A stretch of 17,560 nt of DNA from a virus (IMGVR_UViG_2534681831_000034), one strand, 5' to 3'; counted from the first letter of the stretch, positions 695 through 6,862 are shown. Notes: generated by a model from the sequence alone, not told the origin. Translations and numbers: made by a program.

Positions 695-953
695 TGTGGA
701 TACCCTTTATTTCACAGTAGACGACTGCTACCGCGTGGACTTCACACCACACGGACTGGCGTTGCACTGCCTGACACCGCACGGCGAATCACTGCTGGCG
801 TATTACGACTCCCCGGCCTCCGTATTTGCGGCAATGCTGGCGCATCGCACTGCTGGCGGGTGTGCCTCGCTGAGTGAATACACCGCTGAATTTAACCGCC
901 TTTCCACCATCTTCTTGCAGGAGTGGCAGCGCGTGACGGGATACCAGCCATGA
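695..953 (+). CDS. hypothetical small protein, translationally coupled to the replication gene A
   Basis: ORF in the six-frame track (576-953). I prefer the GTG at 695 because it follows a GGAGA Shine-Dalgarno-like sequence, and because the 576 start would overlap the integrase remnant on the opposite strand. Its stop (TGA 951-953) overlaps the ATG of A at 950 (ATGA). No motif recognised. Confidence 0.35.
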
Positions 954-3790
954 GTGAGTTTGCATGGAGCTGGAATGAACCACGACCAGCCATTGATCCG
1001 GCCAGATTTACGGAGCACAGGCAGGAAACTGAAACCGACCTGCAACGCGCCATCCGTTACTACCTTGAGGCAGACAAAAAGGCTCTGGAAGAACAGGAAG
1101 CGAAGGAGGAAGCCTTTTTCGCACAATCCACCGTGGGTAAAAAACTCATGGCATCCCTTGAGGAAGCCGGACAGCGTGAAAAGCTGGCACAGAACATCAT
1201 CAGTAAGCGTCAGGCAACAGAACAAGACCCGGTGGCCCGTGCTTTTGCCACACTGAAGGTGCTTCCCGTTTATCTGCGTGAACCTCTGAGCCGCCACCTC
1301 TCTTTCCTGCGCAAAAAACAGGAAGCCGATCGCCAGAAAGGCAAAAAGAGCTGGCAGGCTGAACGCTACGCGCGCGGAACCCTGCGCAAAATATTCGAAC
1401 GTCTGGACCGCACCGATCACCGCTGGCTGACACCGGGTTATCGCTCCCTTGCCGGACGCGAACGCCTGGACGATTTGCTTTACCTGCCGCAGCTCAACAA
1501 ACACCAGATACAGACGCTGGCCACCATGACGGCGGCGATGTTCAGCAGCACCTTCGAAAAACTCTGCGATGGCTTTGGCGCGACTGATGGCGAACTGACC
1601 ATGGATGTAACGCTGAAGGCGTATCAGATGCTGGCCCGCATGGCGTTACACCTGCACGCCATGCCTCCACATTATGACGCACTGACAACAGACAAAGACC
1701 GGAGGAACGAACCGGACACGGAGCTGCTGCCGGGCGCAATCCTTCGCCTGACCTGTGCGGAATGGTGGAAACGCAAACTGTGGCTGTTACGTTGCGAGTG
1801 GCGGGAAGAACAACTCCGCGCCGCCTGTCTGGTTTCCAGAAAAACATCGCCCTATCTGAGTCAGGACGCGTTAAGCGAGTTTCGCGCACAGCGCGAGAAA
1901 ACACGCGATTTCCTGAAAAGTTTCATGCTGGAAAATGAAGACGGGTTCACGATTGATCTCGAGACGGTGTATTACGCGGGAGTAAGTAACCCGGTTCACC
2001 GTAAGGCAGAAATGATGGCCACCATGAAGGGACTGGAACTTCTGGCCGAAGCCCGTGGCGACAGAGCGGTGTTTCTGACCGTCACCTGCCCGTCAAAATA
2101 CCACGCAACAACGGAGAACGGTCATCCGAACCCCAAATGGAACGGGGCCACCATGCGCGACTCCAGCGATTACCTGGTTAACACGTTTTTTGCGGCGGTC
2201 CGCAAAAAACTGAACCGCGACGGCCTGCGCTGGTATGGCATCCGCACGGTGGAGCCTCACCATGACGGCACTGTGCACTGGCATATGATGGTCTTTGCAC
2301 ATCCGGACGAGATTGAAACCATCGTGTCCCACGTCTGCGATATTGCCATTCAGGAGGACCGCCACGAGCTGGGCGATGACATAACTCCGCGTTTTAAGGC
2401 GGAGTATGTCGACGGCTCAAAAGGCACACCAACCAGCTACATCGCCACCTACATCGGAAAGAACCTGGACAGCCGCGCCGTGGATGGCATCGACCCGAAA
2501 ACGGGCAAGCCACGCGTTGACCACGAAACCGGAAAATCAATGGCCGAGAGCGTGGAGCGCGCCATCGGCTGGGCGCGCCTTCACCGGGTCCGTCAGTTCC
2601 AGTTCTTTGGCATCCCCTCCCGTCAGGTGTGGCGTGAACTGCGCCGCCTTGCCAGCCAGATGGCACGCAATCCGGAAGGCCCGCAACGGCTGAAAGATGA
2701 TGCAATGGATGCGGTACTCGCTGCCGCCGATGCCGGGTGTTTTGCCACCTACATTGAAAAACAGGGCGGCGTACTTGTTCCACGCAAAGACTACCTGATT
2801 CGCACCGCCTACGACCTCGCAGATGAGCTGAATGATTACGGCGAACAGAGCGTACAGATTTACGGGATCTGGTCACCACTCATCGGGGAATCCTCCCGTG
2901 TGTGCACGCATCCGGATAACTGGAAACTGGTAAGACGTAAACCGGAAACGGAAGACAGCGCCCGCGAAAATGGTTTTGACCTTCAGGGCGGCCCTGCCGC
3001 CCCTTGGACTCGTGGCAATAACTGTCCCCGTGTACAGGAAACGGACAACAACGGGGCAGAACAGCCGGAAGAACGGCCAGCACCGTGGCCGCAGCTCCCT
3101 GACGGCGTTGAAGTGAACGAATGGATGCGCTCACTGAAACGGCACGAACGCCGGGCGCTGATGCGTTCGCTTCGTGACAAACAGGCAAAAAACAGCAGTG
3201 ATGAAATGCAGAGCTGGACACAGAGCCGCAAACAGCAGCGGCCTTTGCCTGATAACCACGAATTACTCGCTAAAGAATGGCGGGAGTCTGCCGAATCTCT
3301 CGGCCTGCATATCGGTGAACAGCAGATGCAGCACCTGCTACGGGGCGGCAGCCTGTACGTTGACGGCAGCATCATTGCACCGCAGGGATATGAAATTGTA
3401 CGCAAACCGGATACCCGCCCGTACAGCCGAATCACGCAGCTCTGGCAGCACCTGAGCCGTAATCACGGCGTAAGCAGCACGGAGATCCGCCATAACCCGG
3501 TCGCCAGCTATCTGGCACAGCTGGGGGCATCAGACCCCGAAGCCGCCGCACGCCTGGCATCCGCACTTCAGCAGGATCAGAACACCATGAAAACACCCGT
3601 TACCGTGCTTTCTGACATGCTGCGCGCCATCCGCGACGCAGAGCACGCACAGAGAATCAGTGAAACCACTGAACGCGCCAGCCGCAAAGCAGACCTGCTG
3701 CAGGGTGGCCTGACCAGTGGAAACAAAAAACAGACAGAAACGGGACTCACGAATCCCGTAAATGAGCAAAAAACGCGCAGCGATATATGA
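950..3790 (+). CDS. A: phage replication initiation endonuclease, P2 gpA family (HUH rolling-circle nickase)
   Basis: Long ORF (track 923-3790). It contains an HUH-type metal-binding motif (HWHMMVF) and a paired-tyrosine motif (YIATYIGK) typical of the P2 A / phiX174 A superfamily. The start at ATG 950 is preferred over GTG 923 because of the ATGA coupling with the upstream ORF; either is possible. The protein is about 200 aa longer at the C-terminus than P2 gpA as I remember it (761 aa). Confidence 0.8.
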   Translation: MSEFAWSWNEPRPAIDPARFTEHRQETETDLQRAIRYYLEADKKALEEQEAKEEAFFAQSTVGKKLMASLEEAGQREKLAQNIISKRQATEQDPVARAFATLKVLPVYLREPLSRHLSFLRKKQEADRQKGKKSWQAERYARGTLRKIFERLDRTDHRWLTPGYRSLAGRERLDDLLYLPQLNKHQIQTLATMTAAMFSSTFEKLCDGFGATDGELTMDVTLKAYQMLARMALHLHAMPPHYDALTTDKDRRNEPDTELLPGAILRLTCAEWWKRKLWLLRCEWREEQLRAACLVSRKTSPYLSQDALSEFRAQREKTRDFLKSFMLENEDGFTIDLETVYYAGVSNPVHRKAEMMATMKGLELLAEARGDRAVFLTVTCPSKYHATTENGHPNPKWNGATMRDSSDYLVNTFFAAVRKKLNRDGLRWYGIRTVEPHHDGTVHWHMMVFAHPDEIETIVSHVCDIAIQEDRHELGDDITPRFKAEYVDGSKGTPTSYIATYIGKNLDSRAVDGIDPKTGKPRVDHETGKSMAESVERAIGWARLHRVRQFQFFGIPSRQVWRELRRLASQMARNPEGPQRLKDDAMDAVLAAADAGCFATYIEKQGGVLVPRKDYLIRTAYDLADELNDYGEQSVQIYGIWSPLIGESSRVCTHPDNWKLVRRKPETEDSARENGFDLQGGPAAPWTRGNNCPRVQETDNNGAEQPEERPAPWPQLPDGVEVNEWMRSLKRHERRALMRSLRDKQAKNSSDEMQSWTQSRKQQRPLPDNHELLAKEWRESAESLGLHIGEQQMQHLLRGGSLYVDGSIIAPQGYEIVRKPDTRPYSRITQLWQHLSRNHGVSSTEIRHNPVASYLAQLGASDPEAAARLASALQQDQNTMKTPVTVLSDMLRAIRDAEHAQRISETTERASRKADLLQGGLTSGNKKQTETGLTNPVNEQKTRSDI

Positions 3791-3835
3791 AGCGCGCACA
3801 AAACAGGCAAAAACGGGATTTCAGAATCCCGTAAA
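3738..3835. promoter_or_regulatory. two copies of a 25-bp palindromic motif (AAACGGGA-N9-TCCCGTAAA); candidate parC centromere/operator or origin element
   Basis: Read directly: copy 1 at 3738-3762 (aaacgggactcacgaatcccgtaaa) and copy 2 at 3811-3835 (aaacgggatttcagaatcccgtaaa). They differ at 4 central positions, each has internal dyad symmetry (ACGGGA/TCCCGT), and their centres are 73 bp apart. Copy 1 lies in the last codons of A; copy 2 lies in the A-parM spacer, about 30 bp upstream of the parM start. Confidence 0.45.
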
Positions 3836-3866: not shown

Positions 3867-4826
3867 ATGAAAATTTGTATCGACGACGGCTCCACCAACA
3901 TCAAGCTGGCATGGACTGAGAACGGCGAACGCCGCAACGCCATCAGCCCGAACAGCTTCAAGTCGGAATGGTCTGCGCCGTTCGGTGGCACGCAGCCCGC
4001 GAACTACATGCTTGATGGCGTGCGCTATGGTTTTGATCCGGTCAGCGATCGCTTTGTCCAGACGACCGACACGCAATACCAATACAGTGATGTGAATGTC
4101 ATTGCCATTCATCACGCGCTGGTCAAATCAGGCATCACGCCACAGGAGGTGGATGTGGTTGTCACCCTGCCACTGAGCGAGTATTTCGACACAAACGCAC
4201 AGCCGGACATAGCCAACATCAACCGCAAAAAAGCGAACGTTATGCGCCCGGTGGAGTACCAGAACGGCGAAGCATTCACTATCCGTAACGTGCGGGTTAT
4301 GCCTGAATCCATTCCGGCTGGCTTTAAGGCACTGGCTGACATGAGTCCGTTTGAATCCCTGCTGATTGTGGATTTGGGCGGAACCACGCTGGATGTGGCA
4401 AAGGTTCAGGGGCAGCTGGCAGGTATCAGCCAGGTGTTTTGCGATCCACACGTAGGCGTTTCCCTGATGGCTGATGCCGTGCTGTCGGTGATGGCCACTA
4501 ACGGTATGCGTACCAGTCACCACATCGCCAATACCATTATTGAGCACCGTCACGATGAAGCCTGGCTGCGCCAGCACATTCACAATGACGCGCATTACAA
4601 CAGCCTGATGGCGGTTATTCGTGAAAAGGAGGAGACACTGAAACAACGAGTGATCCGCGCGCTGGCGGGTTTTTCCGGTTACGGGCGGGTGATGGTTGTC
4701 GGTGGAGGGGCGGAGATTGTGGCACCCGCTATCCGCGAAGCCTGCGGAGTTAATGCGACTTTCATCACGGACGGGGTGCCACATTTTGCTCTGGTTAATG
4801 GGCTGTACGCAATGAACAAGGAGTAA
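3867..4826 (+). CDS. parM: ParM/StbA-family actin-like plasmid segregation ATPase
   Basis: 319 aa with the actin-fold motifs IDDGSTNIKL (phosphate 1), DLGGTTLD (phosphate 2) and VVGGGAE (adenosine). It is collinear with plasmid R1 ParM (StbA) as I remember it. An AAGGA Shine-Dalgarno lies about 9 nt upstream of the ATG. Confidence 0.8.
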   Translation: MKICIDDGSTNIKLAWTENGERRNAISPNSFKSEWSAPFGGTQPANYMLDGVRYGFDPVSDRFVQTTDTQYQYSDVNVIAIHHALVKSGITPQEVDVVVTLPLSEYFDTNAQPDIANINRKKANVMRPVEYQNGEAFTIRNVRVMPESIPAGFKALADMSPFESLLIVDLGGTTLDVAKVQGQLAGISQVFCDPHVGVSLMADAVLSVMATNGMRTSHHIANTIIEHRHDEAWLRQHIHNDAHYNSLMAVIREKEETLKQRVIRALAGFSGYGRVMVVGGGAEIVAPAIREACGVNATFITDGVPHFALVNGLYAMNKE

Positions 4827-4830
4827 ACCA

Positions 4831-5142
4831 ATGACGACACCAACCAGAAGAATAAGTTTCTATCTGAAGCCAGCTGCCGTCAAGAACGAAGGAGAAGCAT
4901 GCGCCTGGCTGGACAGCCTTACACCAGAAGCCCGCAAAAGCGGCCAACGCGTGGCTTTTCTGGCCGGGCTGGCACTTCTGAAGACGAATCCGGCAGAGGC
5001 TTACCGACTGGCCGCATGGGCTGATGATGAGATGTTACCTGTGACACAAATCAGCTCAAAAAAGTTTGAAGCACAGTCTGCACCAGTGGCTAAGATAACC
5101 AGCCAGATGGCTGGGAATATCCGGGCGTTATTTCCTGAGTAA
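4831..5142 (+). CDS. parR: ParR/StbB-like centromere-binding adaptor
   Basis: 103 aa, starting 4 nt after the parM stop with an AAGGAG Shine-Dalgarno. The N-terminal region (RRISFYLKP...LDSLTPEARKSGQRVAFLAGLALLK) resembles the ribbon-helix-helix N-terminus of R1 ParR as remembered. Gene order parM then parR matches type II partition loci. Confidence 0.6.
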   Translation: MTTPTRRISFYLKPAAVKNEGEACAWLDSLTPEARKSGQRVAFLAGLALLKTNPAEAYRLAAWADDEMLPVTQISSKKFEAQSAPVAKITSQMAGNIRALFPE

Positions 5143-5270
5143 AAGCATCTGCGCGAAAAATGCTCACATTTATAGAAACAGTATCATTCCATTTGGCGCA
5201 CTTACTTCAATAATCGATCTGTTAAACAAATAGATTGTCTATTATCTATCGATTAAAACGATCAATTATC

Positions 5271-5299
5271 TTGACAGTAATGTGCCTTTTTGTAAGATC
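5271..5299 (+). promoter_or_regulatory. candidate sigma70 promoter (TTGACA-N16-TAAGAT)
   Basis: A perfect -35 hexamer TTGACA at 5271-5276 and a -10-like TAAGAT at 5293-5298, inside an AT-rich tract containing ATCGAT-centred inverted repeats. Predicted by eye only. Confidence 0.3.
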
Positions 5300-5347
5300 G
5301 TTCGCATTGTGAGCGACAAGATAATTGCGCGGCATTGTCCATGCAAA

Positions 5348-5490
5348 ACGCCCCAATAGCAGCAACTATTGGGGCGTAGAACTCGGTCGGACTCACTTAA
5401 CCTGATATGCGTGCCTTCCGAAGTAAATCAAAATGTGCGTCGTATATTTTATTGCTTACACGCACCTCTGTAAAGGCACGCATATTTTTC
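5348..5490 (+). promoter_or_regulatory. structured leader/attenuator-like RNA element upstream of the 5507 gene
   Basis: A perfect 12-bp stem hairpin (5348-5359 / 5366-5377, loop CAGCAA), then a perfect 13-bp inverted repeat (ATATGCGTGCCTT 5405-5417 / AAGGCACGCATAT 5473-5485) enclosing an inner GTGCGT/ACGCAC pair. The structure is followed by a T-run (5486-5489) and then the GAGG Shine-Dalgarno and GTG start of the downstream ORF. Confidence 0.4.
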
Positions 5491-5506
5491 CTATGAGGTA
5501 AATAAA

Positions 5507-5776
5507 GTGCGGGCTAAAACAGGTATTTGCAAGAACCCTCATCGTTATAACCCAACATTTCTGTCTCTCCCTGAATATCAAGGACAAGAAGGTCGGCACA
5601 AATGCGCTGCCTGTGCTTTTGAGCTAGGCATAAAAGATGCGCTTGAAGGACGCGCTATGGCTCAGAATGATTTAGTTTTAGCTAACATTCCGTTTAGCCA
5701 GGCTGGAACTGTAAGGCACAGAGATGCTTATGAAGCATATGTTCGTGGTTGGCGATTAATACACAGCAACAATTGA
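5507..5776 (+). CDS. small hypothetical protein with a putative C-x3-H...C-x2-C metal-binding motif
   Basis: 89-aa ORF with a GTG start preceded by GAGGT at about 7 nt. Cys8/His12/Cys33/Cys36 could form a zinc knuckle. It is AT-richer than the phage backbone and is followed immediately by a canonical intrinsic terminator. No family recognised. Confidence 0.5.
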   Translation: MRAKTGICKNPHRYNPTFLSLPEYQGQEGRHKCAACAFELGIKDALEGRAMAQNDLVLANIPFSQAGTVRHRDAYEAYVRGWRLIHSNN

Positions 5777-5785
5777 TATTTTTGA

Positions 5786-5808
5786 AGCGCCGATAAGGCG
5801 CTTTTTTT
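5786..5808 (+). terminator. rho-independent terminator
   Basis: GC stem AGCGCC (5786-5791) / GGCGCT (5797-5802) with loop GATAA, followed by a run of seven T (5802-5808), 10 nt after the stop of the 5507-5776 ORF. Confidence 0.7.
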
Positions 5809-6209
5809 GTTTGCACGATAGTGCACAAGTTTGCACAATTTTTTTGAACGACTTTTTGTACTTCCGGCCCGCGTGGCGGCTGGATCCGTCAAGGATCCGT
5901 ACGTGCACAAAAAACGCGTTTTTTCTACGCGCAGGTGACGGGGGAACAGCCCGCGTTTCAGGGGGGTAAACAGCATTCCCTGAACGATGTCGCAGAGACA
6001 CAACAGAATGGCCATATTTCTCACGCTGAGCATGAAAAAGGCGTGAGGGCTTTTGATTTGATGGGGTGAAAGGTAAGGCCGTCAAAATCGCACTGAGGCA
6101 GCGAGAACATACAGTCAACGCGGTGGGATTGCGTAAGAGTCTGACCGTCGATGGTGGCGATAAACTGGAAGGCGTCGTGAAATTATCTGATTGATACAGG
6201 AGCTGGAGA

Positions 6210-6238: not shown

Positions 6239-6337
6239 GAAGCAGCAGACAAGCGAAGCGCGTCAGTGATGCGGCACCTTGCCGACCACACTTCATAAGT
6301 GCAAAATACGAGCAAAGAAATCAATGGAGGCTGTTTT

Positions 6338-6862
6338 ATGGTCATTAATTACAAGCAGTTACGAGAAAAACGAGAGCAGGTAAAGGAAAGTTTTCGCCGC
6401 AATGAAGATCTGACCCCGCTTGTACACCTTGCTCAGGGAATTGTAGATGCTTATGAAATCTCTCTGGAGCTGCCATCACAGACATGGACTGATAGCGACG
6501 GTAATCGCCAGCATTACGTTTCATGCGGACTGGAAACAACTGAAGGGTTTCGCAGAATGCCTTTATCTCAGATTCCTGCCTCTACCCCCAAAGCAAGGGG
6601 CGGCAATGATGAGCGAAAACTGATTTTCAGCATTGAGACAGTGGTTGACGACACACCTGGCGAAGTCGCCTTCGTGCATACTCCTCTTTCGATCGCAATG
6701 TATAACGATGAAATACAGGTTCGCGTTAATAATAATATCGTGCCACTTAAAGAAGGTAATTCACCCTACACCACCGTTTGTGAAGCCATTCAATATTACG
6801 TTCTCTCTGAAATTGATAATCTCAAGCCTGACGGCACCCAGAAAATGGTTCAACTCTGGTAA
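6338..6862 (+). CDS. hypothetical 174-aa protein (cargo/moron gene, unknown function)
   Basis: ATG at 6338 is preceded by GGAGG at 7 nt (the track ORF begins at 6299, but that start has no ribosome-binding site). AT-richer codon composition than the flanking phage genes. It ends at a bidirectional terminator and is convergent with portal gene Q. No catalytic motif recognised. Confidence 0.55.
   Translation: MVINYKQLREKREQVKESFRRNEDLTPLVHLAQGIVDAYEISLELPSQTWTDSDGNRQHYVSCGLETTEGFRRMPLSQIPASTPKARGGNDERKLIFSIETVVDDTPGEVAFVHTPLSIAMYNDEIQVRVNNNIVPLKEGNSPYTTVCEAIQYYVLSEIDNLKPDGTQKMVQLW

Follow-up and report, generated by a model that had tools for sequence, protein, structure and literature searches.

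A mobile prophage cassette, probably under antisense and Dam control, encodes a small protein whose family accompanies GATC systems

What is a small Cys/His protein gene doing in a prophage behind a promoter-like element and a heavily folded leader, and how is its expression controlled? The question is raised by positions 5271-5776 of IMGVR_UViG_2534681831_000034, a stretch of viral DNA of 17,560 nucleotides (nt) that is called the window here (all positions are counted from its first letter) and whose source is an Escherichia coli prophage of the P88 group (Xuanwuvirus, P2-like). An earlier sequence-only reading proposed that the leader is a transcription attenuator, a cis-regulatory RNA or an independent small RNA (sRNA) of about 180 nt, and that the protein of 89 amino acids (aa) carries a zinc knuckle; it missed the GATC sites, the link to restriction-modification (R-M) systems and a promoter on the minus strand. 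Comparison with related loci points to a conserved mobile cassette that is probably antisense- and Dam-controlled. We consider it rather probable that two facing promoters, an antisense RNA, Dam sites and a folded leader jointly control a GATC-linked protein and, as a part of that explanation held with the same confidence, that positions ~5200-5812 form a self-contained accessory ("moron") cassette of a P88/P2-like prophage. Four kinds of observation carry this explanation: the conservation of both promoters, the covariation of a hairpin between them, the enrichment of GATC and the gene associations of the protein family. The features of the cassette that matter for the argument are the following.

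5260-5299, plus strand: sense promoter P+, with -35 TTGACA and -10 TAAGAT; predicted start about 5305
5446-5474, minus strand: antisense promoter P-, with -35 TTTACA (5474-5469), a 17-nt spacer and -10 TAAAAT (5451-5446); predicted start about 5439
5348-5377, minus strand: 12-bp GC-rich hairpin H1, with UUUUG next on the minus strand (5347-5344)
5342-5439, minus strand: predicted cis-antisense RNA of ~100 nt, complementary to about +40 to +135 of the leader
5305-5506, plus strand: structured 5' leader of the small-protein mRNA, ~200 nt; fold z = -3.7
5507-5776, plus strand: small-protein gene, 89 aa, with GTG start at 5507 and GAGG at 5495-5498

The comparison set consists of 23 solitary cassettes from Enterobacterales and Gilliamella prophages, found by scanning genomes and IMG/VR; over the 340 nt upstream they diverge from one another by more than 7%. 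Because they are nevertheless relatives, counts among the 23 are not counts of independent events. The sense promoter, the minus-strand promoter and the GC-rich hairpin are kept in all of them, and the leaders of the other 22 cassettes measure 185-204 nt. One of the related loci is a divergent E. coli locus (L003), which can be aligned at ~75% only over window positions 5201-5376 and whose unannotated open reading frame (ORF) is a homologue with 57% amino-acid identity.

The promoter-like element described by the sequence-only reading is present, with TTGACA at 5271-5276 and TAAGAT at 5293-5298 separated by 16 nt (10/12 matches), and it recurs as TTGAnn-16/18-TAnnnT in 23/23 cassettes. One GATC (5260-5263) lies 7 nt upstream of the -35 element and another (5296-5299) overlaps the -10 element. 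The upstream site is found 6-7 nt before the -35 of P+ in 22 of the 23 cassettes, and a further GATC often stands in or just after the -10. Over the 23 regulatory regions GATC occurs 82 times against 20 expected, a fourfold excess that lies far above the maximum of 36 among 1,000 shuffles, and it is the most enriched of the 16 four-base palindromes; its positions are conserved around P+ and, in most lineages, it is also found at P-. Directly upstream of P+ lies a further element.

5210-5269, no strand assigned: imperfect 60-bp palindrome (arms of 26 nt with 73% complementarity) that holds GATC at 5216 and at 5260

This palindrome, which also holds two ATCGAT sites, is kept only in the cassettes that are linked to ParMR, namely the window, L003 and L127, and may be an operator for some factor.

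The minus-strand promoter is found as TTTAC(A/T)-N17-TAnnnT in 23/23 cassettes, although its spacer sequences diverge between groups, and it always lies 44-62 nt upstream of an anchor codon close to that of Cys8. Between the two promoters stands the perfect 12-bp inverted repeat that had been noted before (5348-5359 and 5366-5377, with a 6-nt loop). On the plus strand a run of A precedes it and no U-run follows; its minus-strand tail in the other lineages is UUUUCC, UUUCCC or UUCCC. The hairpin lies 39-50 nt after the -10 of P+ and ends 63-74 nt past the predicted P- start, or 97 nt in the window. Its sequence differs in all 23 cassettes and its pairing is kept: when arms were swapped between cassettes, matched arms had -19.1 kcal/mol and mismatched arms -9.5 kcal/mol; in a covariance-model alignment 92.9% of cells are paired versus 69.7% in shuffles; double changes occur in 10 of its 13 pairs; and the covariation score is 0.565 compared with 0.206 in shuffles and at most 0.12 in slid controls. 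These alignment values carry a caveat, since the alignment results from fitting to the model and some of its rows are reverse-strand. The covariance-model alignment and the arm swap were used since hairpin lengths differ, and RNAalifold on a plain MAFFT alignment recovered only 4 pairs. Scanned over 666 kb (80 genome loci from across bacteria that carry homologues of the protein), a covariance model of the hairpin and its flanks gave only six matches, every one at the expected site and strand in an Enterobacterales or Gilliamella cassette and none in an R-M operon. By these comparisons, of the kind that the earlier reading had suggested as a check (a covariance search across homologous loci), the hairpin is under structural selection. 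The interpretation that fits it best is that of a 3' hairpin or terminator belonging to a cis-antisense RNA; the complement of the hairpin folds in the sense leader. The predicted RNA would be ~70-80 nt long in other lineages and, in the window, contains AAGGCACGCAUAU, which is identical in sequence to the right arm of a 13-bp repeat described below. A search of Rfam 15 gave no match at gathering score in the window or in the cassettes of 10 related loci, only sub-threshold terminator-like ones; the weak sub-threshold matches on the minus strand concern the terminator parts of ctRNA_pGA1 and sar.

Some further features of the minus strand deserve mention in their own right. In most lineages, with L019, L013, L011 and their relatives among them, short palindromes are found at +1 to +10 of the predicted antisense RNA, namely GAGATCTC (with GAGATTATCTC nearby), GTGATCAC or, in L003 and L127, GAGCTC; the window copy has none. 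These may be candidate binding sites for the small protein itself. Most lineages also have a second GATC in the P- spacer, which the window copy does not have. A strong canonical terminator stands just beyond P+ on the minus strand of L011 (4755-4730), with similar ones in L012, L128, L130 and L154. The Providencia and Proteus cassettes are inserted between late-region genes and a lysis cassette, and there the minus-strand terminator could serve either as the stop of a longer antisense RNA or as an insulator for the lysis genes. The Rfam family sRNA-Xcc1 is matched above gathering score on the minus strand of L154 (2804-2893), ~1.3 kb from the cassette and unrelated to it.

The leader itself is as heavily structured as had been supposed: in a folding run, 5305-5520 has -68.9 kcal/mol compared with -52.4 +/- 4.5 kcal/mol for shuffled sequences (z = -3.7), and none of 200 shuffles folds as well. 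Two features of its 3' part have to be distinguished.

5400-5499, plus strand: long-range stem with 13-bp arms, lineage-specific; U-run 5485-5489
5407-5496, plus strand: 29-codon upstream ORF, starting with an ATG inside the left 13-bp arm and stopping at a TGA that overlaps the Shine-Dalgarno sequence

The perfect 13-bp repeat reported by the sequence-only reading is present (5405-5417 and 5473-5485, 55 nt apart), followed by T5485-T5489 and then by GAGG at 5495-5498. In the minimum-energy fold ACCU 5400-5403 pairs with AGGU 5496-5499, which includes the Shine-Dalgarno sequence, and extends the stem. The repeat is confined to this E. coli lineage, where it shows no variation by which the stem could be tested; its nearest relatives, L003 and L127, do not have it and carry ACCUCA/UGAGGU in its place. 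Thus only part of the expectation that both inverted repeats are retained in relatives that keep the gene was borne out, since the 12-bp hairpin is kept in 23/23 cassettes and the 13-bp repeat is missing in L003 and L127. Most other lineages have a short hairpin in which the Shine-Dalgarno sequence is the 3' arm and the 5' arm covaries with it, for example GCACCUU/AAGGUGC, CCCUGU/ACAGGAG or ACCUCA/UGAGGU, and folding models show the ribosome-binding site partly occluded in 23/23 cassettes. According to these models, the lineage of the window seems to hide its ribosome-binding site by a long-range stem instead of a local hairpin. The left arm of the 13-bp stem lies inside the segment covered by the antisense RNA. 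When the antisense target is blocked in partition-function models, the openness of the ribosome-binding site is lower in 21/23 cassettes and unchanged in 2/23 (mean from ~0.39 to 0.28), a weak hint that the antisense RNA would be inhibitory. The upstream ORF and the short ORFs of the minus strand were considered as coding sequences and dismissed; on inspection they are not conserved across lineages, and the upstream ORF is probably incidental.

The 89-aa ORF is, on the sequence comparisons, a real gene. It matches PHROG 3941, a phage family of unknown function, with E = 6.3e-49 (residues 4-89 against positions 1-86 of the 86 in the profile), and a full HMMER search gave 172 homologue clusters at 50% identity and a profile search 1,440 at 90% identity, in all sources named "hypothetical"; a word-indexed single-sequence protein search found only the protein's own two clusters, and Pfam, NCBIfam and PADLOC have no model for it. 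In RefSeq the homologue (92 aa) is unannotated at L003 4277-4555 and at the equivalent position of L004, and the ORF of the window is annotated in only some near-identical E. coli genomes, an inconsistency that leads to under-counting of the family. The C-x3-H...C-x2-C arrangement recognized earlier is present (C8-x3-H12 and C33-x2-C36). Across the family C8, H12, R30, G41, Q65 and R70 are invariant and R13, Q25, H31, C33, C36 and others nearly so; this conservation makes a zinc knuckle and nucleic-acid binding plausible, with a CHCC zinc site as the plausible arrangement. The protein is a tandem repeat, the halves of which are homologous (HHalign probability 97%, E = 6e-11) and share the unit LPxxQxGxxRH(K)xxxxA(Y/F)xxG; CxxC is kept only in the first repeat, which also gains the N-terminal C-x3-H. 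The AlphaFold2 model is confident (pLDDT 87.5, pTM 0.81) and shows a duplicated loop-plus-helix unit, for which no structural match was found in PDB or BFVD. Ribosome modulation factor, the non-significant top match in Foldseek, was rejected, as its HHalign probability is 4.7%. By its sequence the protein is hydrophilic, soluble and slightly basic, and has no hydrophobic segment.

Indications of what the protein may do come from the genes that accompany its family. When the neighbours were clustered in the 80 genome loci, a D12-class (Dam-like) adenine methylase was found in 36 loci, a second N6/N4 methylase in 24, a DpnII-family restriction endonuclease in 20 and a DUF6996/6997/7226 protein in 10; small PDDEXK_11 nucleases also recur. 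A gene for a D12 methylase, DpnII, N6_N4 methylase or PDDEXK_11 nuclease lies within 4.5 kb in 41 of the 74 scorable loci, and these neighbours are mostly adjacent and co-oriented, which also holds for metagenomic Bacteroidota contigs. Together these genes make up R-M systems of the GATC type, as in DpnII/MboI. Moreover, NOV_C/DUF3883 and HNH_2 nucleases carry the domain in tandem at their N-terminus, and DGQHR/DndB-like proteins and a BrxR-like WYL regulator carry it at the C-terminus. Five of the nine fusion proteins that were looked up adjoin a gene for a D12 methylase, DpnII or a MutH-family protein, and the other four come from very short contigs or have Dnd-associated genes as neighbours. 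Solitary copies cluster in the Enterobacterales, Orbales, Pasteurellaceae, Vibrionaceae and Alteromonadales, groups of Gammaproteobacteria that carry chromosomal Dam. Going by association only, the simplest reading would be a module of DNA recognition or regulation that relies on GATC sites or on their methylation to function. A different neighbourhood is seen in Pseudoxanthomonas and relatives (L026, L045, L052, L053 and L080), where the small gene lies directly 3' of a gene for a 540-aa protein with weak PGAP1-like alpha/beta-hydrolase matches and not beside R-M genes. In L003 (4622-4909) and L004 (4614-4901) the small gene is followed by an extra gene for a 95-aa protein (PHROG 33929, function unknown), which the window does not have.

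Taken together, these findings suggest a cassette with three layers of control, of which we infer the transcripts, the Dam sensitivity, the direction of the antisense effect and the binding of zinc and GATC. The first layer would be P+, a sigma70 promoter that the GATC sites upstream of its -35 and inside its -10 would make sensitive to Dam methylation. As a second layer, the ~200-nt leader would hide the ribosome-binding site, in the lineage of the window by means of the 13-bp stem. The third would be the facing promoter 135 nt downstream, which would yield a ~100-nt cis-antisense RNA with its 3' end at the 12-bp hairpin; paired with the leader, this RNA could lower expression by duplex cleavage, by promoter interference or by favouring the closed form of the ribosome-binding site. 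The protein, probably stapled by zinc, would bind DNA at or around GATC, since its domain, wherever it is found, accompanies GATC-acting enzymes (Dam-like methylases, DpnII and MutH-like proteins); it would possibly read the methylation state and act as an accessory or regulatory factor. A wider proposal, which we regard as tentative and less likely than not, is that members of the family are stand-alone DNA readers of GATC or of its N6-adenine methylation state with a novel fold, which in bacteria without Dam work with their own Dam-like methylase and DpnII-type nuclease and which, alone in prophages of Dam-positive Enterobacterales and Orbales, form a switch for under- or hemimethylated DNA. 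Such DNA, arising in replication, in induction or in invading DNA, would be what the protein reports; the Dam-site promoter and the convergent antisense RNA would make the protein the switch, with effects in turn on restriction, repair or phage development.

Several observations weigh against this explanation. The number of promoter-like elements in the region is at chance level (3 found, 3.6 expected), so that the case for function must come from the relatives, and the copy in the window has none of the GATC sites and palindromes seen at P- in most relatives. Beyond the lineage of the window the hairpin has only UUUCCC or UUCCC as a tail, and a terminator scan calls it in no locus, so that transcripts may stop there inefficiently or only in part. 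In Providencia, where a canonical minus-strand terminator stands beyond P+, a longer antisense RNA is conceivable. Nor does the stability of the hairpin discriminate between the strands, the minus strand being favoured in 14 cassettes and the plus strand in 9, and the use of G-U pairs to tell which strand is under selection gave an ambiguous outcome. The predicted antisense RNA would overlap neither the Shine-Dalgarno sequence nor the start codon, its 5' end at ~5439 being 56 nt upstream of the Shine-Dalgarno sequence at 5495 and falling short of the translation start in 23/23 cassettes. Finally, the role proposed for the protein comes from gene association, as no match in fold or sequence provides a biochemical precedent. 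A type I toxin-antitoxin (TA)-like addiction module would be a special case of the explanation preferred here: an excess of the protein would do harm, for instance through binding to GATC sites all over the genome, with the antisense RNA as an unstable antidote to it, and the module, next to parMR, would stabilise the prophage or a plasmid form of it. The long structured leader, the hidden ribosome-binding site and the small convergent antisense RNA are of type I-like architecture, the stacking of three layers of control suggests a cost of expression, and the cassette is mobile, occurs in prophages and lies here beside a partition system. However, we consider an addiction module unlikely: the soluble, slightly basic protein has no hydrophobic segment, unlike most type I toxins, its homologues are ordinary co-transcribed members of R-M operons without the antisense arrangement, the antisense RNA leaves the ribosome-binding site uncovered, and evidence of toxicity is absent.

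Control acting purely in cis on the sense strand, either by an attenuator formed by the 13-bp stem and the U-run or by a translational riboregulator, with a silent or irrelevant minus promoter, would account for the five T that follow the stem directly before the Shine-Dalgarno sequence, for the strongly structured leader and for the covarying hairpins that sequester the Shine-Dalgarno sequence in most lineages. Yet no other lineage has the stem and U-run, no Rfam family is matched, and this reading fails to explain why TTTAC(A/T)-N17-TAnnnT is kept on the minus strand in 23/23 cassettes while the spacers diverge, and it appears quite unlikely to us. No conserved sense-strand hairpin followed by a U-tract was found between the promoter and the ORF, as an intrinsic-terminator attenuator would have. 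The attenuator of the earlier reading is therefore unlikely as a conserved device, its repeat and U-run being lineage-specific, and is possible in this lineage only. The sense sRNA of ~180 nt proposed at the same time, which would run from 5305 to ~5490, act in trans and merely share the locus with the ORF, did not hold up: the minus-strand promoter that had gone unseen, conserved in 23/23, and the hairpin make a cis-antisense RNA of ~100 nt the most likely product instead. The sense sRNA can point to the promoter at 5271-5298 and to the terminator-like stem and U-run at 5473-5489, but that element is lineage-specific, the leaders of the relatives run straight into the hairpin of the ribosome-binding site and the ORF, and Rfam gives no match; it is highly improbable. 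We think equally little of the idea that the AT-rich repeats and promoter region at 5200-5300 are parC or another part of ParMR and the ORF a partition accessory. The region lies immediately 3' of parR and the 60-bp palindrome is confined to ParMR-linked cassettes; however, parC-like units (ACGGGA-N8-TCCCGT) stand in the canonical place upstream of parM, so that 5200-5300 would not be needed as parC, the same promoters and gene occur in many prophages without ParMR, and there were 0 matches in 72,556 plasmids.

Among 5,426 complete E. coli genomes, 166 contain homologous DNA, as do a few phage records, and a comparison of the region with the plasmid database gave 0 matches among its 72,556 entries. 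The order in the window is replication endonuclease, ParM, ParR, the cassette, the cos-proximal region, a 187-aa ORF, and the portal and terminase genes on the minus strand; the cassette and the genes before it are delimited as follows.

923-3790: replication endonuclease gene
3867-4826: ParM gene
4831-5142: ParR gene
5784-5811, plus strand: intrinsic terminator closing the cassette, with an 8-bp stem GAAGCGCC/GGCGCTTT and then a T-run

Similarity to other P88-like phages begins only at ~5785-5812 and continues rightwards, so that ParMR and the small gene are variable cargo between the replication gene and cos. The same cassette is found elsewhere in unrelated surroundings, adjoining a lysis cassette, umuDC or a cI-like repressor gene, and is therefore autonomous, the mobile unit being promoter, leader, gene and terminator. 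A scan for tRNA and tmRNA genes detected none. In the cargo region of this integrated P2-like prophage there is also a complete ParM/ParR pair (StbA / Plasmid_stab_B, 3867-5142), which suggests a plasmid-like phase or a stabilising role. The palindromic unit ACGGGA-N8-TCCCGT, followed by AAA, is present in two copies (3740-3763 and 3812-3835) at the 3' end of the replication gene and just upstream of parM, and is a plausible candidate for parC or a ParR operator of the prophage ParMR. An accessory ORF of 187 aa (6299-6862), between the cos region and the portal gene, belongs to PHROG 5091 (function unknown) and has no Pfam match.

If the explanation preferred here, a Dam- and antisense-controlled cassette for a GATC-linked protein, is correct, a widespread domain without a database model gains a context as a recurrent companion of GATC-specific methylases and nucleases, and becomes a candidate recognition or regulatory module that is missing from current descriptions of DpnII/MboI-type systems. 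The enterobacterial prophage cassette would then be a tractable model of epigenetic and RNA control of a phage accessory gene, and its antisense RNA an unannotated small RNA family with clear covariation. Our search of the literature found no described small protein of DpnII-type systems and no similar prophage module with Dam and antisense control.

How does the cassette compare with known systems? R-M systems are regulated by helix-turn-helix (HTH) controller (C) proteins, by promoter methylation and by antisense RNAs from reverse promoters, and a review of this regulation mentions no protein of the present kind for DpnII-type systems (PMC12707154). As in that field, we find a small accessory gene in Type II R-M operons, GATC in the gene's own promoter and predicted convergent antisense transcription, so that three known regulatory themes appear together here. 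In contrast to a controller protein, which has an Xre-type HTH domain and whose gene immediately precedes the restriction gene in a shared transcript, the 89-aa protein has no HTH or other Pfam or NCBIfam match and a different predicted fold, and the position of its gene varies (5' end, 3' end, middle or opposite strand). The modification readers fused to nucleases include the winged-helix N6-methyladenine (6mA) sensors of DpnI-type enzymes (PMC11037411) and fusions of SRA, PUA and SBD domains (PMC6765204, PMC7461809). The family studied here would resemble these in being a small, often tandem DNA-recognition module N-terminal to HNH or PD-(D/E)xK/NOV_C nucleases, and would differ in its unmatched fold and in standing, in these fusions, beside Dam-like methylases or DpnII and not alone as Type IV enzymes. 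The Ogr/Delta zinc finger (CxxC-x22-CxxxxC, Pfam Ogr_Delta), found in the late activators of P2-like phages, was rejected as a relative, as there is no Pfam match and the Cys/His pattern differs; L003 has a separate annotated Ogr/Delta gene.

The systems closest in arrangement combine a small gene with an antisense RNA. As in symE/symR and ralR/ralA, a small gene in a prophage or mobile setting has a long folded leader and, by prediction, an antisense RNA from a facing promoter; a further parallel is the link of RalR to restriction biology. Unlike them, the cassette has no kinship to them in sequence or fold, its antisense RNA would cover neither the ribosome-binding site nor the coding region, and its homologues are normal genes of R-M operons. 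Among the marks of a type I TA system, the conserved facing promoter and hairpin predict the antisense RNA, and the protein, hydrophilic and of 89 aa, is not the small hydrophobic, membrane-active or nuclease toxin that would be expected. The work of the Kleckner laboratory on IS10/Tn10 reportedly revealed a control by pIN and pOUT in which RNA-IN and RNA-OUT act together with Dam methylation, RNA-OUT covering the start of the transposase gene. The cassette shares with IS10 a pair of facing sigma70 promoters separated by ~100 nt, an mRNA promoter with a GATC in its -10 element and, by prediction, a short hairpin-ended cis-antisense RNA. In place of a pairing across the translation start, the transcripts here would overlap by ~100-135 nt, with the overlap stopping 55 nt or more short of the Shine-Dalgarno sequence; what is encoded is not a transposase but a protein of 89 aa that does not look like an enzyme, IS ends are absent, and the Dam sensitivity is a prediction. 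By analogy, and with the departures from the defining features of both that have been described, the cassette would work most like pIN/pOUT of IS10 and would also resemble a type I TA system with a soluble toxin. It would also have in common with IS10 the logic by which the expression of a potentially harmful, DNA-acting protein is coupled to the methylation or replication state of the DNA.

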